64,000 nucleotides of DNA from Candidatus Woesearchaeota archaeon (GTDB taxonomy: Archaea > Nanobdellota > Nanobdellia > Woesearchaeales > SM23-78): the NCBI GenBank assembly GCA_016930415.1, contig JAFGGS010000016.1, positions 1,359 to 65,358 of the forward strand, given 5' to 3'. This document shows, piece by piece, positions 5,194 through 18,147 of the stretch. Position 1 is the first letter of the stretch. Every line of letters starts with the position of its first letter. The notes under the pieces are model-generated. The model saw only the letters and a program-made list of their open reading frames with translations, was not told the DNA's origin and did no database searches. The position numbers and the translations under genes are program-made.

Positions 5194-7137
5194 TTATCTT
5201 ATCCTTTCTTTCAGCTTCTTTAACCGGTCTCTTAGGGCTATGGCTTTCTCGAAGTCTAAGTCGTCTGCGGCTTTTTTCATGTCTTCTTCAAGCTCGATTA
5301 TGACGTTAGGGATGTCTTTCTTCGGGATATGCTTGATGTCTTTTATCTCGACTTCCTTGGCCTTGACTGGCTTTATGATGGTCTTCGGGGTGATGCCGTG
5401 CTCCTTGTTGTATTCCAGCTGGATTGATCGTCTTCTCTCTGTCTCGCATATGGCGCGCTTTATGGAGTCTGTCATGTTGTCAGCGTAGAGGATTACCTTT
5501 GACTCTGAGTTCCTCGCCGCCCTGCCTATTATCTGGATCAATGACTTATCATTCCTTAGGAATCCTTCTTTGTCTGCGTCTAGTATGCCTATGAACGCGA
5601 CTTCAGGGATGTCTAAGCCTTCTCTTAAGAGGTTGATGCCTACGAGGACGTCGAACTTGCCTAGGCGCAGTTCCCTGATTATTTCGCTTCTCTCTAAGGT
5701 GTCGATTTCAGAGTGGAGGTATCTTGTCTTGATCTTCCTCGAGGCGAGAAATTCTGAGAGCTCTTCTGCAAGCTTCTTTGTGAGCGTGGTTACGAGGGCG
5801 CGGTTGCCCTTCTTGATGGTCTGTTCTACTTCTTTTATTAAGTCATCCACTTGGCCCTTTATCGGCCTGATCTCGACCTCAGGGTCAACTAGCCCTGTAG
5901 GCCTGATTATCTGCTCGACTACCTGGCTTGATTCTTTCAGTTCATACTCTCCAGGCGTGGCAGAGACGAAGATGACGCTCTTCATGTAGTCCTTGAACTC
6001 CTCGAACCTCAATGGCCTGTTGTCGTAAGCGCAAGGAAGGCGAAAGCCGTATTCTACCAGGTTCTTCTTTCGGGACTTGTCTCCGTTGTACATGGCGTGG
6101 AGCTGAGGGATCGTCTGGTGTGACTCATCTATTATCAGGAGGAAGTCTTCTGGCATGTAATCCATCAATGTGTAAGGCTTCTCGCCTGGCTTTCGGCCGT
6201 CGAAGTGCCTGCTGTAGTTCTCGATGCCCTTGCAAAATCCAGTCTCCTCAAGCATCTCGACGTCGTATAATGTGCGCTGCTTTAGCCTGTGGGACTCTAG
6301 CATCTCAAGGCCAGGGAGTGTCTGGTCAAGTTCAGTCCTGATGGCCTGGATGGCGGCTTTCACCTCATCCTCTGGGACCACGAAGTGCTTTGCAGGGAAG
6401 ACGAAGGCGTACTTCATGTCCTCAACCAGGTTGCCCGTGACCTTGTCCAGCTCCCTGATCCTCTCGATCTTATCACCTAAGAGCTCTATCCTGACAATGT
6501 TGTTGAAGTATCCTGGGATGAAGTCGATGGTGTCGCCTTTCACCCTGAACCTTCCAGGCAATAGTTCCAAGTCGTTCCTCTCATACTGCGATGCGATTAG
6601 GCGCTTTAAGATGTCAGTTCTCGTGATATTCTGGTGGACTTCGAGATCGAACCCGAGCTTTTGGAAGTTATCGGGCTTGCCAAGGCCATAGATGCAGGAT
6701 ACTGAAGCTATGACTATGGTGTCTCGCCTGCTAAGGAGGGATGCTGTGGCTGAGAGCCTCATCTGCTCGATCTTAGGGTTGATGCTAGAATCCTTCTCGA
6801 TGTACATGTCCTTCTGCGGGATGTAGGACTCTGGCTGGTAATAATCGTAGTAAGAGACGAAGAACTCGACGCGATTGCCAGGGAAGAACTCCTTGAACTC
6901 GCTGTACAGCTGGGCGGCCAAGGTCTTGTTGTGGACAATGACAAGCGTTGGCTTTTGCGAGGCTTCAATGACGTTCGCCATTGTGAAGGTCTTGCCAGAG
7001 CCAGTCACTCCTAGGAGAGTCTGGGCTTTCAGGTTGGTGTCTAGACCCTTGACTAGTTTCTTGATGGCTTCGGGCTGTGAGCCTGCTGGCCTAAACGTGT
7101 CTGCAATCCGAAACCTAGGTGAATCCTTGATGATCAT
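5194..7137 (-). CDS. uvrB: Excinuclease ABC subunit B
   Basis: GVTGSGKT Walker A, YYDYYQPE beta-hairpin, DESH, VGINLLREGLD, QIIGRAARN, C-terminal UVR domain; likely start MIIKD at 7137. Confidence 0.98.
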   Translation of the reverse strand: MIIKDSPRFRIADTFRPAGSQPEAIKKLVKGLDTNLKAQTLLGVTGSGKTFTMANVIEASQKPTLVIVHNKTLAAQLYSEFKEFFPGNRVEFFVSYYDYYQPESYIPQKDMYIEKDSSINPKIEQMRLSATASLLSRRDTIVIASVSCIYGLGKPDNFQKLGFDLEVHQNITRTDILKRLIASQYERNDLELLPGRFRVKGDTIDFIPGYFNNIVRIELLGDKIERIRELDKVTGNLVEDMKYAFVFPAKHFVVPEDEVKAAIQAIRTELDQTLPGLEMLESHRLKQRTLYDVEMLEETGFCKGIENYSRHFDGRKPGEKPYTLMDYMPEDFLLIIDESHQTIPQLHAMYNGDKSRKKNLVEYGFRLPCAYDNRPLRFEEFKDYMKSVIFVSATPGEYELKESSQVVEQIIRPTGLVDPEVEIRPIKGQVDDLIKEVEQTIKKGNRALVTTLTKKLAEELSEFLASRKIKTRYLHSEIDTLERSEIIRELRLGKFDVLVGINLLREGLDIPEVAFIGILDADKEGFLRNDKSLIQIIGRAARNSESKVILYADNMTDSIKRAICETERRRSIQLEYNKEHGITPKTIIKPVKAKEVEIKDIKHIPKKDIPNVIIELEEDMKKAADDLDFEKAIALRDRLKKLKERIR

Positions 7138-7268
7138 CAAACAACAGAATGCTTGAGTGTTTAAAAAAGCTGCGGGAAAATGTCCAGTTGACTTAGCGAA
7201 GACCGAAAGAAACCGGAAGGAGCACTGGATGTCTTGTGAAAACTCACGGCCGTGGCGCGCTTTACAAG

Positions 7269-8819
7269 TCAATCCTTAAGCTTCTTAGACCTTAACAAGC
7301 GATTGTAGGTGATTGCGAACCTGTGGGCCTCATCCCTGATCTCCTGCAAGAGCTGCAAGGCAGGATCCTTCTTCTCTAAGATGATAGGATGAGGCCTGCC
7401 TGGAGCGAATATCTCCTCGTTACGCTTAGCGAGGCTGATGATAGGGATCCTCAGATTGAACTTCTTAAGCTCAGCCAAGGCAGCTCCGAGCTGACCCTTA
7501 CCGCCATCAATCACTATAAGGTCTGGCATCTGAGCCTTCTCGAATGTGAGGCGCGCGTATCTCCTGCGGACCACTTCTGCTATGGATCTGAAATCGTCTA
7601 TACTCTCCACAGTGGTTATCCTGAAACGCCTGTAACCAGACTTATAAGGGATTCCACCCCTGAACTGCGCCATGGAGCCGACCGTGGAGGTGCCGCTTAG
7701 ATGGGAGATGTCGAAGCACTCAATGACGTTAGGAGTCGCGTTTAGTTTTAATCGTTCTCTTAAGCGCTCTAACTTGGCGGATTTTCCGAAGAAAGAGATC
7801 TCCAGGTTCTTCTCCGCCAACTCTAACAGCGTCCTCTTCTCACCCTGCTTCGGGCAGATGGCCGACACCTTAGAGCCGCACTTCTCAGACAAGACATCCA
7901 AAAGCGGCCGGGAAAGAGCGACTCTCAATATGATCTCCTTAGGAATAGAATTATCCTCATAGAAGCGGGTGATGAACTCCTCCAAGAAGTCTTCAGAATA
8001 ATCTAATACGAACTCCTGCTTGTTATTCAAAGTACCCCTGAAGATATTGAAGACCAAAAGGAAGACCTGGTCGTCCCTCACCATGAAGACGATCACGTCC
8101 TCATCGAAGCGTTTTTTTCTTTCCATAGACTGAGACTCCTCCAAGGTGTTAAGCGCCTCGATCTGATCCCTCAAAATCAAGGCGCGCTCAAAATCTTGAG
8201 CATCAGAAGACTGCTTCATCTCAGCCCTTAGATTATCAACCAACTCCTTAGTCTCACCCCTAAGGATAAGCCTGGCCTTAGCCAAAGACACATCATAAGC
8301 TGCTTCGCTGATCCCTCCCATGCAAGGAGCAGGACAAAGACCGATATGGAAACGGATACAAGGGCGTTTTGGGAGTCTCTTACAAGTTCTCAATTGAAAG
8401 TGACGGTTGATAGTCTCGATGATGAGATTACGCTCTAAACCACTAGTGAAAGGACCGAAAAGCTCGCCGCCAGACGACTTATCCCTGCTCAAAATGACTC
8501 GCGGATAAGGCTCTTTCGTGATCTCGATGAAAGCGAATCTTTTAGAATCTTTAAGGTCTATGTTGTACTTAGGCAGATGCTTTTTCACTAAGGTAGATTC
8601 TAATAATAAAGCTTCCTTCTCAGAATTAGTGACGATGAAATCAACAGAGACGATGTTAGCGACGAGAGCTTTGGTCTTTGCGTCCTGGTCTTTCTTAGAG
8701 AAATAAGACGAGACACGCTTCTTCAAATCCTTAGCCTTACCAACGTAGATGATCCTATTGTTAACATCCCTGAACTGGTAAGAACCAGGCAAAGACGGAA
8801 GACGGGACAAATCAAGCAT
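7269..8819 (-). CDS. uvrC: Excinuclease ABC subunit C (no C-terminal HhH2 domain visible)
   Basis: GIY-YIG (PGSYQF..IIYVGKAKDLKKRVSSYF), Cys cluster, UVR domain, ECFDISH, DLIVIDGGKGQ, RDEAHRFA; likely start MLDLS at 8819. Confidence 0.96.
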   Translation of the reverse strand: MLDLSRLPSLPGSYQFRDVNNRIIYVGKAKDLKKRVSSYFSKKDQDAKTKALVANIVSVDFIVTNSEKEALLLESTLVKKHLPKYNIDLKDSKRFAFIEITKEPYPRVILSRDKSSGGELFGPFTSGLERNLIIETINRHFQLRTCKRLPKRPCIRFHIGLCPAPCMGGISEAAYDVSLAKARLILRGETKELVDNLRAEMKQSSDAQDFERALILRDQIEALNTLEESQSMERKKRFDEDVIVFMVRDDQVFLLVFNIFRGTLNNKQEFVLDYSEDFLEEFITRFYEDNSIPKEIILRVALSRPLLDVLSEKCGSKVSAICPKQGEKRTLLELAEKNLEISFFGKSAKLERLRERLKLNATPNVIECFDISHLSGTSTVGSMAQFRGGIPYKSGYRRFRITTVESIDDFRSIAEVVRRRYARLTFEKAQMPDLIVIDGGKGQLGAALAELKKFNLRIPIISLAKRNEEIFAPGRPHPIILEKKDPALQLLQEIRDEAHRFAITYNRLLRSKKLKD

Positions 8820-8892
8820 GACAGAGGAAAATGAGAGTGCGTTTAAAAGGGTTACCAAAAAACTTAAAACTATGACAAACTCTCCGGGTGGT

Positions 8893-9255
8893 ATGGATGG
8901 GGAGACAACAATACAAGAACTGAAAGATAAGATGCAAGCTTTCTGTGAGGAGAGAGACTGGGACCAGTTTCATGGAGCAAAAGACCTGGCCATCGGAGTG
9001 ATCACAGAAGCATCAGAGATACTGGAGCACTTCAGGTTTAAGAGCGAAGAGCAGATAGTCGAGCTGTTCGCAAACCCCGACAAGAAGACAGCCATAAGCG
9101 AAGAGATGGCGGATGTACTCATACTCCTTGCAAGGATGGCCCAGAAGTACGACGTAGACCTCTCAGAAGCCTACCGCGACAAGATGGCCAAGAACGAAAA
9201 GAAATACCCTGTGGAGAAAGCGAAAGGGAGTAATAAGAAGTACAACGAGCTATGA
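8893..9255 (+). CDS. MazG-like nucleotide pyrophosphohydrolase
   Basis: RDWDQFH..KDLAI....EASEILEHF and EEMADV motifs; GGGTGGT RBS before ATG at 8893. Confidence 0.88.
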   Translation: MDGETTIQELKDKMQAFCEERDWDQFHGAKDLAIGVITEASEILEHFRFKSEEQIVELFANPDKKTAISEEMADVLILLARMAQKYDVDLSEAYRDKMAKNEKKYPVEKAKGSNKKYNEL

Positions 9256-9257
9256 TG

Positions 9258-10310
9258 TTATGTTGAGAATATCTCTGTAGGTCCGAAGAATCTACCATCT
9301 TTAACCCAGAATGTTTTGATACTGATGTAGTCAAGAAATTCCATGTATATTTTTGGTGGCTTCCTATCAAGTGCTAGACACTTTACAATCGAGCTTGCTT
9401 CTCCTTCTTCAACACGAGGTCTTACGTAAAAGTATTCGTATGAAAATAATTGAGCTATTGCAGCTCTAATCTGTTTTTTCATATTTGCTGTGCTTTTCAT
9501 CTCAAATAAGTAGAATTTGTTTTTTATATTAACCAATAAATCATAACTTTTCTCATCTGTCTGACAGATTCCTCCGTATATCTCAAAGAAATCAATGAAT
9601 CTATTTACTAAGTCTTGATGTGCGTGATTTGCTTTTCCAAGCTTTTGTGCATCTTTGGAGAAATAGGTTAGTATTCTTTCAGAAGGAATATCTCTTAATT
9701 CTTTTTTTTGTGCTACTTTGGGATTTCCTTTGGTAATTCTCTCTGGCATATCTGCGTAGTATTCTTCCAGTTGTGTAATTGTGTCTTTGTAGTGGCTTTC
9801 AATATCTAGCGATAGAAACTTCTCCACAGATCCGTATTGCTCGATGATTTTTTCAGTGGCCTCTTGTGTGAGAGGCATAAAACCCTGGACTCGGTCCCAG
9901 TTTTCTGCATAGTTTGTGAATTGCCTTAAGGTGGCTATTGGAAGGTCTATGGGATGATAGTCTGATACAAAAAATATGCAGGGCCAGGGGGCTCGTGGGT
10001 CTGATCGTCCCCAGAATTTGTCTGAGAACTCCATACTCTCTTCCTTAGCAATTAGTCTGCTGTAATGTATGAATTTTCCTTTTGCATAGAACAAGATAAT
10101 ATCTCCTTCATTCATGGAATTCCATCTACTTTTCAACGAAGCAGTATTTCCCCACGCTCTAAACTGTGGGTTTTGTTTGAGTTTGGTTTTGTTGTGTTCA
10201 GAAAGGTATTGTTCAACAGATTCATACGTCATCTCAAATTGCATTGTTGACTTAATGTTTTCTGCAGAGTGTTCATTACTTCTTGGAGCCAGGAATATTT
10301 GAACCATCAA
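9258..10310 (-). CDS. Putative modification-dependent restriction endonuclease: PUA/EVE-like N-domain + PD-(D/E)XK nuclease
   Basis: N-term WG..W.SM.EGDIILFY..FW..WP.IFF aromatic pattern; C-term YDLLV-x7-LFEMKS-x6-QIRAAIAQLFSY; visibly AT-rich. Confidence 0.6.
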   Translation of the reverse strand: MMVQIFLAPRSNEHSAENIKSTMQFEMTYESVEQYLSEHNKTKLKQNPQFRAWGNTASLKSRWNSMNEGDIILFYAKGKFIHYSRLIAKEESMEFSDKFWGRSDPRAPWPCIFFVSDYHPIDLPIATLRQFTNYAENWDRVQGFMPLTQEATEKIIEQYGSVEKFLSLDIESHYKDTITQLEEYYADMPERITKGNPKVAQKKELRDIPSERILTYFSKDAQKLGKANHAHQDLVNRFIDFFEIYGGICQTDEKSYDLLVNIKNKFYLFEMKSTANMKKQIRAAIAQLFSYEYFYVRPRVEEGEASSIVKCLALDRKPPKIYMEFLDYISIKTFWVKDGRFFGPTEIFST

Positions 10311-10393
10311 CTTGTACTCTTTGTGAGATATTTACACTTTTGTAGCCTCATCTGGTTACAAATCATTATATTTGCTTATGTTTGATTTAACAT

Positions 10394-10672
10394 ATGCGAC
10401 TAAGTTTTAACTATAAAGAGAACAATATTGTAAAAACCGCCAAAAAGTTGAGAATTCTTAGTAATCCAAATCATCTTCGAATCCTCTTACTTCTAAAAAG
10501 TGCATTGAAACCGATGACTACTGAGGAAATTCGTGTTGTGCTAGAGGCTGGGGGTGTTTATAAGCACAGAGAGAACACTCATAAAGCACTCCAAAAGCTT
10601 GTTAAGTTGGGTTTGGTGAAGAAAAATAAAGGACCTGGTGGGGTGAGGGATGTTTATGAGTTTTGTAATTGA
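10394..10672 (+). CDS. ArsR-like winged-HTH transcription regulator
   Basis: LRILSNPNHLRILLLL and THKALQKLVKLGLV wHTH pattern; divergent from the nuclease gene. Confidence 0.75.
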   Translation: MRLSFNYKENNIVKTAKKLRILSNPNHLRILLLLKSALKPMTTEEIRVVLEAGGVYKHRENTHKALQKLVKLGLVKKNKGPGGVRDVYEFCN

Positions 10673-11848: not shown

Positions 11849-12328
11849 ATGTTAGATTTATTTTATCAATTGGCTCCTTTTTTTGAGGATGTCTACAGAG
11901 AAGTCTCTGTCAGGCAATACGCCAAGTTAACAAGCGTCAGCCCGCCCACTGCCTCGATCACGCTGAGGCGCTTGGAGTCAGAAGGACTCCTGATAAGTAG
12001 GCCCCTTGGGATATATCTCTTCTTCAAGCCAACCTTAAGCTACCAGTTCAAGCAGTTAGCTCAAGCTTACTGGCAAAAGCTCTTATATGACCATACCGAA
12101 GCCTTGCATGAAGAGGTTGATTTCAATGACATCATCCTTTTCGGATCAATAGCAAAAACCGAAAACAATGCTAATTCTGATATCGATATCTACGTAAATT
12201 CCTCCCATAGGAATATTAAATGCCTGGGCGCCCTGGAAAAGAAGCTCAAGAGGCGGGTCGAGCTGCACTTCAAGACGACGAGCCCCCTCCTGAAAGACAA
12301 CATCGATAAAGGCATCAGGATAAGATGA
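11849..12328 (+). CDS. wHTH + minimal nucleotidyltransferase (MNT/MntA-like antitoxin)
   Basis: N-term HTH (SVRQYAKLTSVSPPTAS..L..LESEGLL); LFGS..K....NSDIDIYV. Confidence 0.85.
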   Translation: MLDLFYQLAPFFEDVYREVSVRQYAKLTSVSPPTASITLRRLESEGLLISRPLGIYLFFKPTLSYQFKQLAQAYWQKLLYDHTEALHEEVDFNDIILFGSIAKTENNANSDIDIYVNSSHRNIKCLGALEKKLKRRVELHFKTTSPLLKDNIDKGIRIR

Positions 12329-12717
12329 ACTGGGAAGAATGCACAAGGCTCGCATATGCAAAGAAGACAGCCAAAGACGACGCCCTGATTAAGTCTATGC
12401 AGGAATCTGCTCTTGCAAGGGAAAAGACCGCGGGCATGCTAAGGATTGACGAGACAACAAAAGAGACTCTCTTCACGCTCTACTACGACGTCCTAAGAGA
12501 GCTTGTGAGCATAGAAGCCCTAAAGAACGGCTACAAGATCTACAACCACGAATGCTTAAGCGCCTTCCTGGCAGAAGTCCTCAAAGACAATGATTCTGCA
12601 AGGGAATTCGATAACCTGAGGCGCTTAAGGAACAATATCAGCTATGAAGGCAAAAGACTAGGCCATGCAAAAGAAGCAATAGACCGAGCAAGAGGCCTAA
12701 TCAAGAGATATCACTAA
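12325..12717 (+). CDS. HEPN-domain protein (partner of the MNT)
   Basis: ATGA overlap with the MNT gene; LYYDVLRELV..EALKNGYKIYNHECL; RRLRNNISY (R-x4-Y variant of R-x4-6-H). Confidence 0.8.
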   Translation: MNWEECTRLAYAKKTAKDDALIKSMQESALAREKTAGMLRIDETTKETLFTLYYDVLRELVSIEALKNGYKIYNHECLSAFLAEVLKDNDSAREFDNLRRLRNNISYEGKRLGHAKEAIDRARGLIKRYH

Positions 12718-15206: not shown

Positions 15207-18032
15207 CTACTTCAGCACGTCTTTCAAGAACTTGCCGGTGTAGCTCTTCTTCACCTTAGCAACTTCTTCAGGAGTCCCGACAGCCACGACTTCACCGCCG
15301 GCATCCCCGCCCTCAGGCCCAAGGTCGATTATATAATCAGCTGACTTGATAACATCCAGGTTGTGCTCTATCACTATTACAGAGTTGCCCATCTCCACCA
15401 AGTCATCAAGCACCTTGATGAGCTTCTTAGTGTCGTGGAAATGAAGGCCGGTCGTAGGCTCATCCAAGAGATAAATAGTCCTCCCCGTAGCCCTCTTGGC
15501 AAGCTCGCGCGTCAACTTAATCCTCTGAGCCTCTCCACCAGAGAGAGTGGTAGAACTCTGGCCCAGCTTGATGTACTCCAAGCCCACTCGCTTCAAAGTC
15601 TCAAGCTTCTCCCTGATGATCGAGATGTTCTCAAAGAGCTTCAAAGCCTCCTCGACGCTCATGGCAAGGACGTCAGCGATAGACTTGCCCTTATACTTGA
15701 CCTCCAAGGTCTCAGCGTTGAAACGCTTGCCCTTGCACTCCTCGCACTCGACGTACACGTCAGGCAAGAAGTTCATCTCGATCTTGATCAAGCCATCACC
15801 CTGGCAAGCCTCGCACCTGCCGCCGCGCACGTTGAAACTAAAACGCCCAGGACCATACCCTCGAAGCTTAGCCTCCTGCGTGGACGCGAAGATCTGGCGG
15901 ACGTAATCCAAGACCTTGGTGTAAGTCGCAGGGTTAGACCTGGGAGTCCTGCCGATAGGAGACTGATCGATCACTATCACCTTGTCGATCTCGCTCTCAA
16001 AGCTGATAGACTCGTGCTTTCCGATAGGCTCCTTGCTCTTGTAGAACTCCTTCATTAGCGAGCGATAGAGTATCTCATATATCAAGGTCGACTTGCCGCT
16101 CCCAGAGACACCGCTTATTATGCCGAACACGCCAGTAGGGATCTTCACATCAACACCTTTAAGGTTGTTCTCAGAAGCACCCTTGATGCTGATCCAGCCG
16201 TTAGGCTTACGACGCTTCTTAGGGATCTCGATCCTCTTAGCGCCAGACAAGTACTGGCCAGTCAAGCTCTTCTTATCCTTCTCGATCTCCAAAGGAGTGC
16301 CCTCTGATATTATCTGGCCGCCATGAATGCCAGCGCCAGGGCCCATGTCGATCACGTGATCAGCCCGCCTGATAGTGTCCTCGTCATGCTCCACAACAAG
16401 AAGAGTGTTCCCAAGATTACGAAGATGATGAAGAGTCTCGATGAGCTTGTGGTTATCGCGCTGATGAAGCCCTATAGAAGGCTCGTCAAGGATGTAGATG
16501 ACACCCATGAGGTTGCTTCCGATCTGCGTCGCCAAGCGGATCCTCTGAGCCTCACCACCAGACAAGGAACCAGCGCTCCTGGACAAGGTCAAGTAGCCAA
16601 GCCCCACGTCCTTCAAGAACATCAGCCTGGACCTGATCTCCTTTAGCACCTGGCGGGCGATCTCAGAATCCTTAGCATTAAGCTTCAAGCCATCAAAGAA
16701 CTCAACAGTCTTCTCGATCGAGAAGTCAGTCACCTCGATGATCGACCTGGAATTGACCTTTACAGCGAGAATCTTAGCCTTAAGCCTCTTGCCCTTGCAA
16801 ACAGGGCAAGGATTGAACCTCATGAACTTCTCAAGCTCCTGGCGCCTGTAATCAGACTCTGTCTGCTGATAAAGCCTCTCGGACTGAGGGACAAGTCCCT
16901 CCCAAGTCCCCTTATGGCTCCAGCTAGCCTCGCCGTTCTTCATCACCATGTCGAAATTGATACGATCATCGCTTCCATGCATGAGTGCGCTATACTGCTT
17001 CTTTGAAAGCTCCTTAAGAGGGGTTAGTATGCTAAAACCATGATGCTTTGCGACGGCTCCTATAATCTGGTTCCTCCAGCCGTCCATCGCGTTCCTGTAA
17101 AGCGCGATGGCGCCGTCAGCTATGCTCTTATCCTTGTCAGGGATGATCAAGTCAGGGTCGAACTCAGACTTGGTGCCAAGACCATGGCAAGTCTCACAAG
17201 CCCCGAACGGCGAGTTGAAACTAAACATCCTAGGCTGGAGCTCCTCGAAACTCACGTCACACTCAGGACAGCTCATCTTAGAAGAGAACAGCTTCTCAAG
17301 GCCCTTGTCATCAACGACGATCAACAAACCATCCTCAGACTTCTTGATGGCGTTCTCACAAGCCTCGACGAGCCTGGCCTTGTCCTTGACCTCAACCCTG
17401 TCGATCACAGCCTCGATGTCATGCTTCTTGTAACGCTCAAGCTTGATCTTCAAAGGCTCATCAGTGCGCACGACCTCGCCATTCACGCGGGCACGCGCAT
17501 AGCCCTCCTTGTGAAGATCCTCGATCACAGCCTCATAAGTCCCCTTCTTCTGCCTGATGATAGGCGCAAGCACAGTGACCTGACCTTTAGAATCAGCAGC
17601 TATCCTCTCAGCGATCTTTTGAGGAGACTGGCTCTCAATCCTAGTCCCGTGCACAGGGCAATGAGCCACGCCGATCCTAGCGAACAAGAGCCTCAAGTAA
17701 TCATAGATCTCAGTGACCGTGCCGACAGTAGACCTCGGATTCTTAGAAGTAGTCTTCTGCTCGATAGATATCGCAGGCGACAATCCCTCTATAGAGTCCA
17801 CGTCAGGCTTGCTCATGAGACCCAGGAACTGGCGGGCGTAAGCAGACAAGGACTCGACGTACCTTCGCTGGCCCTCAGCATAGATCGTGTCAAATGCAAG
17901 AGTGGACTTGCCGCTCCCAGAAAGCCCAGTGATCACTACGAACTTATCCCTGGGGATGCGCACGTCGATGTTCTTCAGGTTATGCTCACGAGCACCCCTG
18001 ATCAGTATGTCTTTCATAAGAGAATCACTCAT
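15207..18032 (-). CDS. uvrA: Excinuclease ABC subunit A
   Basis: GAREHNLK, two Walker A ([16 protein letters not shown]), two LSGGEAQR signatures, Zn fingers. Confidence 0.99.
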
Positions 18033-18147
18033 GAGCCAAGACACCAAGATTATTTATAAGGATTTCGTTGAACATAACAAAAGAGCCCTGAGAAATTTCG
18101 GTTTAAAAGCCCTGCGGGGAGATGTCTAGTGGGTCTAGTGGAAAGAA

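Follow-up and report, generated by a model that had tools for sequence, protein, structure and literature searches.

Eukaryotic YTH domains read N6-methyladenine (m6A) in RNA, and to our knowledge readers of the same base in DNA (6mA) are few. In McrB from Thermococcus gammatolerans (TgMcrB), the N-terminal domain is reported to adopt a YTH fold that prefers 6mA DNA (PMC7544203; PMC7680126). Enzymes that join a modified-base reader and a nuclease in a single chain are an established class within type IV restriction, and Bell, Wolf and Koonin predicted fusions of YTH/EVE-like domains with PD-(D/E)XK nucleases (Bell et al. 2020, PMC7641849), although none that combines such a YTH-like reader with a PD-(D/E)XK domain is known to have been characterised. 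Here, we describe a gene of this same architecture on a 64,000-nucleotide stretch of the Candidatus Woesearchaeota archaeon assembly GCA_016930415.1 (contig JAFGGS010000016.1, positions 1,359–65,358 of the forward strand; hereafter ‘the window’), where it lies between a MazG-like gene and a winged helix–turn–helix (wHTH) gene. We computed the two folds of the encoded protein and the conservation of its catalytic residues, compared the fusion partners of its reader domain and the gene neighbourhoods of homologues, and found a conserved operator-like palindrome at a locus that is low in GC and accessory. With a probability of roughly 0.6, we read these three genes as one cassette, acquired horizontally, that restricts DNA in a modification-dependent (type IV-like) manner. 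While the architecture of the reader-nuclease is thus already predicted in the literature, we found no published description of the conserved MazG partner or of the wHTH–operator unit.

The reader-nuclease gene occupies positions 9258–10307 on the minus strand and encodes 349 amino acids plus a stop codon; its longest open reading frame (ORF) spans 9258–10310, but since homologues open with M-x-x-IFLAPRS, translation probably begins at the ATG at 10307. A search of 1.84 billion representative proteins returned 858 relatives at E ≤ 0.001, nearly all of which cover residues 1–170 alone, with a few that are full-length (P0011 at 37%, P0031 and P0096) or cover residues 165–349 alone. These separate N- and C-terminal relatives point to two independent modules with a charged linker between them. 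Against PDB sequences, the whole protein matched only a designed TIM barrel, and this through low complexity. The motifs on which the original prediction of a modification-dependent nuclease was built (FRAWGN, SRWNSMNEGDIILFY, DKFWG, PWPCIFF, LFEMKS and QIRAAIAQLFSY) are all present in the translation, and their key residues are invariant in our alignments. Judging from alignments and structural models, the gene very likely encodes an active PD-(D/E)XK nuclease joined to a reader of modified bases.

The reader domain, delimited by AlphaFold2, Foldseek and a family profile, comprises residues 1–168 (positions 9804–10307, minus strand). Its AlphaFold2 model has a predicted local distance difference test score (pLDDT) of 86.9 and a predicted template modelling score (pTM) of 0.83. 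In a Foldseek search of the PDB, the model matched 71 structures at E ≤ 1e-3, the best 50 of which are all PUA-superfamily readers. The highest template modelling (TM) scores, 0.63–0.66 at a root-mean-square deviation of 4.0–4.4, were reached by the TgMcrB N-terminal domain (6P0F/6P0G), followed by the EVE proteins MJECL36 and PH1033, THYN1 with 5-methylcytosine (5mC) DNA, YTH domains, ASCH domains and VcaM4I. Sequence profiles converge on the same relative: the profile of the N-domain family matched 6P0F with an E-value of 4.7e-5 (profile columns 14–155 on chain residues 16–171) and full-length TgMcrB (6UT5) with 4.7e-4, TgMcrB being the sole significant PDB sequence match. Pfam EVE (PF01878) does not match the window protein, and the homologue P0009 scores 17.2 bits, below the cut-off of 23. 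Both the sequence profile and the model therefore support a PUA-superfamily fold that is homologous to the YTH-like DNA-binding domain of TgMcrB. The earlier description of this part of the protein as PUA/EVE-like is borne out as far as the superfamily is concerned and needs adjusting in its second half, as the domain, by these comparisons, is EVE-like without being a member of Pfam EVE and lies closer to the YTH-like McrB domain. An alignment of 21 N-domain sequences, the window's included, has eleven invariant positions (W52, G53, W62, G68, D69, F73, Y74, W99, W108, F112 and F113), and W52, W62, Y74, W99, W108 and F112/F113 are candidates for the residues of an aromatic pocket that would hold the base.

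The proteins in which this reader domain recurs are equally informative. Among 108 homologues, the most frequent Pfam fusion partners are AAA_5 of the McrB type (28), HNH_2 (19), HNH (16) and NOV_C (10); GmrSD_N, MrcB_N and DndB occur twice each, and EVE itself scores in two (E ≤ 1e-3). Plasmid-borne homologues from Bacillus and haloarchaea are annotated as HNH or restriction endonucleases. Among phage records, only one distant relative of the N-domain was found, in an Archaeoglobus provirus, where it is fused to an AAA ATPase. As far as domain annotation can tell, the fusion network of the reader domain is that of type IV restriction.

The C-terminal domain spans residues 200–349 (positions 9261–9710, minus strand), as defined by AlphaFold2, Foldseek and alignments. 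Its model (pLDDT 88.3) shows the alpha-beta-beta-beta-alpha-beta order, with helices at 10–44 and 77–101 and strands at 48–52, 56–62, 65–72 and 107–114 in domain numbering. Almost all Foldseek matches are PD-(D/E)XK proteins, among them Cdn1, AF1548, the R2 restriction-like endonuclease (RLE), N.BspD6I, XisH, Hjc, McrC, LmuA and Can2; in sequence, a profile comparison gave a weak match to Hjc in which the D and the ExK again line up. The catalytic core D256...E269-M-K271...R281...Q286-x3-Y290 (positions 9438–9542, minus strand) emerges from a 19-sequence alignment and the model: D256 opens strand 2 (56–62), E269 and K271 lie on strand 3 (65–72), and Q286 and Y290 on the helix 77–101. In three alignments of 9, 11 and 19 sequences, each including that of the window, D256, E269, K271, Q286 and Y290 are invariant, as is H230 on helix 1 (codon at 9618–9620, minus strand); R281 is invariant in the two smaller alignments and about 95% conserved in the largest. 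The spacing D-x9-FEMK given earlier has to be corrected to D256-x12-E269-x-K271, i.e. D-x11-FEMK. Sequence conservation and model alike support a PD-(D/E)XK fold that retains all its catalytic residues and is predicted to cleave with a metal ion, in agreement with the class of nuclease originally proposed. Indeed, the Foldseek comparison of both domains that had been suggested as a check returned a PUA-like N-domain and a PD-(D/E)XK C-domain.

As would be expected of a portable effector, the C-domain is found in metagenomic loci behind varied N-terminal modules: a ‘GPPEHW...WG...W..GD’ type, a DUF7226/wHTH type and an unannotated one. An assignment of the N-terminal module of three loci (L015, L016 and L024) as MrcB_N-like was dropped, as Pfam found no match. 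The GPPEHW domains (L017, L026, L063 and L066) align with the window N-domain by hhalign over 26 columns around WG...W...GD with a probability of 51%; that they are PUA-like is a motif-level guess.

A YTH-like fold joined to a nuclease could also act on RNA, with the reader recognising m6A or another RNA mark and the PD-(D/E)XK domain serving as an RNase on transcripts of viral or cellular origin. Eukaryotic readers of m6A in RNA do score in the Foldseek search, cap-snatching RNA endonucleases are among the weak PD-(D/E)XK matches, and some McrBC-related systems (CoCoNuTs) have been predicted to target RNA. Yet the best match in both structure and sequence is a DNA-binding McrB domain, the effectors that replace the nuclease in related proteins (HNH and GmrSD) are DNases, and the partner enzyme described below most resembles a deoxynucleotide pyrophosphatase, all of which makes an RNA-directed enzyme highly improbable. 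A modification-dependent endonuclease that cuts DNA and is used in defence, on the other hand, is a probable identity for the protein.

The MazG-like gene (positions 8893–9255, plus strand) encodes about 120 amino acids. Its longest ORF is 8818–9255, and since homologues measure 115–123 residues, the ATG at 8893 is probably the start, which also abolishes the overlap of the longest ORF with uvrC. The gene is convergent with that of the reader-nuclease, with 2 bp between the stop codons. Its product matches Pfam PF12643 at an E-value of 9.8e-16 (58.2 bits against a cut-off of 27) and, over its whole length, dCTP pyrophosphatase 1 (DCTPP1)/RS21-C6 in the PDB at 5.5e-20, and the DCTPP1 alignment keeps the metal ligands E-x2-E (EASE) and E-x2-D (EMAD). 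A DCTPP1-like, all-alpha nucleoside-triphosphate pyrophosphatase is predicted on these grounds. The nearest solved relatives of this partner act on dCTP and 5-modified dCTPs. It is the sole PF12643 gene in the host genome (1.3 Mb, 91% complete), and the family occurs in two of 14 control genomes. A second, distant MazG-type ORF of the same genome (C1:103579–103899; 28% identity, E 1.1e-6) was missed by the PF12643 search.

What makes this small enzyme conspicuous is the company it keeps. A MazG homologue lies directly beside the reader gene in 12 further loci (L002, L004, L005, L008, L017/L018, L026, L034, L039, L049, L053, L054 and L070) and flanks the wHTH cassette in three more (L059, L066 and L067), so that the total is at least 15 distinct loci besides the window, spread over archaea, candidate phyla radiation (CPR) bacteria and Bacillaceae plasmids. 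One of these, L067, carries a radical-SAM-like gene rather than a reader-nuclease, so that it supports the cassette and not the link between MazG and reader. By tblastn, the MazG gene is 40–47% identical in L002, L004, L005, L008, L017/L018 and L026, where its end often overlaps the start codon of the nuclease gene; the starts of the MazG and reader genes overlap in L034 and L039, and the MazG gene of L035 is 2.4 kb away. Plasmids of Bacillus mycoides and Peribacillus simplex carry the pair, as does a Halobacterium plasmid on which the two genes are convergent as in the window. The MazG proteins of DPANN-type cassettes are 58–67% identical to that of the window, and in L059, L066 and L067/68 a MazG-like gene of 120 codons, with 58–63% identity to the window's, is convergent with the wHTH gene. 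The convergent MazG-like gene named in the original prediction is thereby confirmed, with a Pfam score above the cut-off and a recurrence beside readers in many lineages.

Among loci that encode a reader in a single chain with HNH, HNH_2 or the window-type PD-(D/E)XK domain, 10 of 14 have an adjacent MazG gene. Where the C-domain follows the DUF7226/wHTH-type or the unannotated module rather than the GPPEHW type, no adjacent MazG gene was found. This pattern of adjacency across reader and C-domain loci indicates that the MazG partner tracks the reader and not the nuclease, and we consider it likely that MazG is a functional partner of the reader. Several loci show variations on this pairing. 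In L070 (G061:C3, 1144–2259), from a 0.5-Mb genome of the same class, a MazG gene of 118 codons abuts that of a 252-residue reader-only protein, which consists of the reader domain and a charged C-terminal tail and has no nuclease domain. A same-genus locus (L043; G014:C18, 2–1863) encodes a 66% identical MazG of 121 residues, whose gene has the same orientation as, and ends 2 bp upstream of, that of a protein with a length of at least 498 residues; this protein combines an N-terminal E...D...ELK nuclease-like motif with a Schlafen-group-3/DUF2075 helicase (PF09848, E 8.6e-51); according to this pairing, MazG also partners other defence-type nucleases. In a gammaproteobacterial metagenome-assembled genome (MAG), a gene for a 71-residue Xre-type HTH protein (L008, 1028–1243) lies between the MazG and reader-HNH_2 genes, so that a small regulator accompanies the MazG/reader pair there too, albeit one from a different family. 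Finally, on a Haloarcula marina plasmid (L051, 2917–5986), a reader ‘restriction endonuclease’ gene is convergent with dTMP kinase and ‘nucleotide kinase domain’ genes, which by annotation is another link to nucleotide metabolism, without MazG.

The recurrence of MazG beside the reader also invites a different interpretation, in which the locus is an abortive-infection sensor: the PUA-like domain would bind a free modified mononucleotide set loose by infection, upon which the nuclease would degrade DNA indiscriminately, while MazG would make or clear the signal (converting modified dNTP to dNMP) or, as a second effector, deplete deoxynucleoside triphosphates (dNTPs). A PUA-like nucleotide sensor of this kind, with rare variants in which a MazG-like enzyme takes the place of calcineurin, has been described in a 2026 preprint (bioRxiv 10.64898/2026.01.15.699771), and the reader-only locus L070, where MazG is retained without a fused nuclease, would fit a small-molecule ligand shared by both proteins. 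However, the nearest solved relative of the reader binds DNA, its dominant fusion partners are restriction modules that translocate or cut DNA, and no HAD or calcineurin partner occurs among the top fusion families or in any of the loci compared. We therefore consider a nucleotide sensor rather unlikely and continue to favour restriction of modified DNA.

The third gene, wHTH (positions 10394–10672, plus strand; 92 amino acids), is divergent from the reader-nuclease gene across an intergenic region of 86 bp. Its weak matches, all below cut-off, are to the Pfam families HTH_20, MarR_2 and DUF4423 and to PADLOC's Csa3 wHTH; no PDB sequence matched significantly, and scans of Pfam, PADLOC and NCBIfam gave no match to HTH_3. 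Homologues of 90–95 residues are 52–60% identical, and NCBI assigns two of them to Nanoarchaeota and Woesearchaeota MAGs. Together with the window, seven further distinct loci (L057/58, L059, L060–62, L063, L064/65, L066 and L067/68) provide eight contexts, in all of which the wHTH gene has a divergent neighbour 86–102 bp away. This neighbour is a reader-nuclease in six of the eight, window included, and a radical-SAM-like gene in two. The reader-nucleases themselves differ: two loci encode a divergent subtype of the window N-domain with HNH (phmmer E 1.5e-11 and 4.8e-9), two a GPPEHW-type domain with HNH_2, and one a GPPEHW-type domain with the window's C-domain family (E 3.4e-49). Of the divergent ArsR-like gene originally called here, the divergent wHTH gene itself holds, whereas membership in the ArsR family is not demonstrated by matches that all stay below cut-off.

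Radical SAM genes appear in these loci in two guises. The divergent partners in L064 (770–2080) and L067 (2–1225) are proteins of 408–436 residues with a CxxxCxxC radical-SAM motif, a weak Radical_SAM match and an insignificant viperin-like match (16.7 bits); MazG is still present in L067. In addition, a gene for a 390–400-residue radical SAM protein of the PA0069/Rv2578c type (SplB-like ‘DNA repair photolyase’) is convergent with the reader-nuclease gene in L057–L063, and a related gene (393 residues; L065, 1–1035) lies upstream of an HNH gene.

Within the 86-bp intergenic region lies an operator-like palindrome, TTTGTAGCC-N6-GGTTACAAA (positions 10339–10362). It abuts a TATA-like box, CATTATATT (10364–10372, plus strand), about 23 nt upstream of the wHTH ATG, and on its other side a mirror AT-rich box (10328–10336, minus strand) is located about 22 nt upstream of the nuclease ATG. 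When the eight intergenic regions are aligned, TGTAGCC-N6-GGCTACA followed by AATAATTATATA is conserved, with arms that show little or no variation, although the nuclease genes on either side of these regions are non-orthologous; the TATA-box sequence ATAATTATATA is invariant, and most of the eight loci have a further GGCTAC half-site after the conserved block. In the whole host genome, the window palindrome is the single match to TGTAGCC-N6-GGCTACA with at most one mismatch. A sigma-70 promoter scan did not differ from shuffled controls and is not applicable to an archaeal host. From this arrangement, we infer a dimeric repressor bound between two back-to-back archaeal promoters that would give leaderless mRNAs, and it is reasonably likely that the wHTH protein is a local repressor of the reader-nuclease.

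These recurrent pairings bear on the simplest objection, namely that a patchwork island has brought three unrelated genes together, with a nuclease that works alone, a housekeeping MazG and a wHTH protein that regulates some other target. In the window, MazG is convergent and not co-transcribed with the nuclease, and many reader-nucleases elsewhere lack both partners. Chance association is nevertheless very unlikely, given that MazG adjacency is found in at least 15 independent loci across phyla, though the family occurs at most once per genome, and that the wHTH gene is always divergent from a cassette gene across a conserved intergenic palindrome.

The genomic setting is that of an acquired element. 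The GC content is 0.38–0.41 across 9–12 kb of the window as compared to about 0.50 elsewhere, marking a low-GC island. The reader-nuclease is single-copy in the host genome, and neither it nor the wHTH gene has a counterpart in any of 14 same-genus genomes. Across 401 sampled genomes of the host phylum, the N-domain is held by two, with MazG adjacent in both. The nearest relatives of the window's MazG and wHTH proteins are DPANN copies, whereas those of the nuclease are from CPR bacteria (36–43% over the N-domain), which suggests an exchange of the effector gene inside a cassette that was already resident. The same island contains a wHTH-fused nucleotidyltransferase gene (Polbeta/NTP_transf_2, E 3e-7) that overlaps a 130-codon ORF without a Pfam match (11849–12717) and has no homologue in any neighbourhood locus compared. 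Flanking the island are uvrB (5194–7272), uvrC (7269–8858) and an ORF of 946 codons (15207–18047). Since a search for uvrC, the one checked, drew a blank in all 14 same-genus genomes at E ≤ 1e-20, the uvr genes around the island seem to be accessory in this lineage as well.

Such neighbours might suggest a module for DNA damage or nucleotide hygiene, in which the reader would find a damaged or adducted base, the nuclease would nick beside it and MazG would clean up damaged dNTPs together with the nearby repair genes. The cassette does sit between uvrC and a uvrA candidate, an SplB-like radical SAM gene lies in or beside it at six of the eight DPANN-type wHTH loci (the window has none), and MazG-family enzymes are classic house-cleaners. 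But elsewhere the cassette is found on plasmids and in defence or mobile contexts (OLD/PLD, ResIII-Z1 and toxin–antitoxin genes), members of the reader family are joined to McrB, GmrSD and HNH modules, the gene is sporadic in the phylum (2 of 401 genomes), and uvrC is itself accessory here. A role in repair is for these reasons improbable, and restriction of modified DNA remains the reading that we pursue below.

A motif scan of the 91% complete genome found no C5-methyltransferase motif, and its sole NPPY/NPPF methyltransferases are MTS-type RNA or protein enzymes; no methyltransferase gene lies within the island. A reader and a nuclease in one chain, with no cognate methyltransferase found in that scan, is the arrangement of a type IV enzyme, and this picture is compatible with the carriage of a modification-dependent nuclease, so far as motifs can tell. 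By homology, the best guess for the recognised base is N6-methyladenine, with a modified cytosine as an alternative. Three homologous cassettes have a C5 cytosine methyltransferase gene no more than a few kb away: L017 (7565–9221, with a Vsr-like gene), L053 (4349–5390) and L062 (1–53). Their presence has a bearing on the modifications that such readers can tolerate.

From these elements we infer substrate specificity, cleavage, the substrate and role of MazG, repression and a role in defence as follows. The N-terminal reader would bind a flipped-out modified base in DNA, after which the PD-(D/E)XK domain (D256, E269 and K271) would cut the DNA with Mg2+. The MazG-like enzyme would hydrolyse a non-canonical dNTP, probably the triphosphate of the reader's modified base. 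Its removal would keep salvaged modified nucleotides out of the host chromosome, in which no DNA methyltransferase is recognisable, and would so prevent self-cutting; in addition, MazG could deprive a virus of the modified precursor it needs. The wHTH protein would bind TGTAGCC-N6-GGCTACA between the back-to-back TATA-like boxes and repress its own gene and probably that of the nuclease. That MazG sanitises the cognate modified dNTP is possible, if doubtful. In an equally tentative extension, the locus could be viewed as a ‘pool-and-polymer’ immune module with its own switch: MazG would destroy the triphosphate of exactly the base that the reader recognises, nucleotide-salvaging DPANN and CPR organisms would be spared self-cutting, and the wHTH gene with its operator would form a portable DPANN promoter unit for swapped effectors, be they PUA-HNH, PUA-PD-(D/E)XK or radical-SAM-like.

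Several observations speak against a restriction cassette of this composition. The 349-residue protein has no direct match in Pfam, PADLOC or NCBIfam, and Foldseek support for the C-domain is modest (E 4e-3 to 0.1, TM 0.35–0.51). MazG is convergent with the nuclease gene in the window and so not co-transcribed with it, and no adjacent MazG gene was found at four PF27126-type loci, one GmrSD-type locus and two loci of the haloarchaeal restriction-endonuclease type. A single base shared by both proteins is not self-evident, as 6mA is the preference of the nearest solved reader, but dCTP and 5-modified dCTPs are the substrates of the nearest solved MazG relatives, and the C5 methyltransferases near the L017, L053 and L062 cassettes argue against general 5mC targeting. 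Since two wHTH loci have a radical-SAM-like partner instead of a nuclease, what the wHTH protein controls may be an exchangeable position and not nucleases in particular. Finally, the methyltransferase survey was motif-based and covered a genome that is 91% complete.

If the cassette is what we propose, the greater interest lies in its two partners rather than in the nuclease. In archaea, CPR bacteria and Firmicutes plasmids alike, one clade of modified-base readers is accompanied by a DCTPP1-like pyrophosphatase, which suggests that the restriction of modified DNA and the policing of nucleotide pools are coupled. A repressor of its own, acting through a conserved operator on effectors that can be interchanged, would, if true, make this one of the few documented examples of a DPANN defence cassette under transcriptional control. 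And should the specificity of the enzyme prove sharp, it would be usable as a reagent for the mapping of DNA modifications.

How, then, does the locus compare to described systems? The anti-phage PUA-Calcineurin-HAD module, which senses m6-dAMP (bioRxiv 10.64898/2026.01.15.699771), likewise combines a PUA-like domain, here a nucleotide sensor, with nucleotide-pool enzymes and has rare MazG-like variants. The locus in the window, however, has no HAD or calcineurin gene, and its effector is a nuclease fused to the reader. Broader literature searches for a pairing of MazG with a reader found this PUA-MazG-HAD variant alone. For the MazG protein itself, DCTPP1 and mouse RS21-C6 (6SQW, 2OIE) provide a whole-length match with the same ligands and the shared family PF12643, but DCTPP1 is a eukaryotic housekeeping enzyme, whereas the window gene appears as a mobile partner of reader-nucleases. 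The wHTH gene recalls the C proteins of type II restriction–modification systems, as both are small DNA-binding proteins encoded beside a nuclease gene with a palindromic operator-like site at the promoter. C proteins, in contrast, are of the Xre-type HTH rather than the winged-helix kind, the putative window promoters are of the archaeal TATA type, the controlled enzyme is predicted to be modification-dependent and has no methyltransferase to wait for, and the wHTH family has a radical-SAM-like partner in two loci. Judging from its sequence, the wHTH protein is therefore not a member of the C-protein family, though controller-like, with repression as its predicted activity.

With respect to the reader-nuclease, the predicted enzymes of Bell et al. 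(2020) share its architecture, none of them having been characterised, and PMC7641849 contains no occurrence of MazG or pyrophosphatase and no wHTH controller. VcaM4I and TspA15I (EVE-HNH, 6YEX) are likewise single chains of a PUA-superfamily reader and a nuclease, and close homologues of the window N-domain carry HNH or HNH_2; the window protein, however, has a PD-(D/E)XK domain and no Pfam EVE score. No MazG partner or controller is described for the EVE-HNH group in PMC6765204, which does not mention MazG or pyrophosphatase. TgMcrB (6P0F/6P0G) of the McrBC system differs in that the window reader is fused to PD-(D/E)XK in a single chain, has neither a GTPase motor nor McrC and shares only about 13–14% identity in the Foldseek alignment. 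Yet it is the best match of the reader in structure and in PDB sequence, and 28 of the 108 family members carry the McrB-type GTPase themselves.

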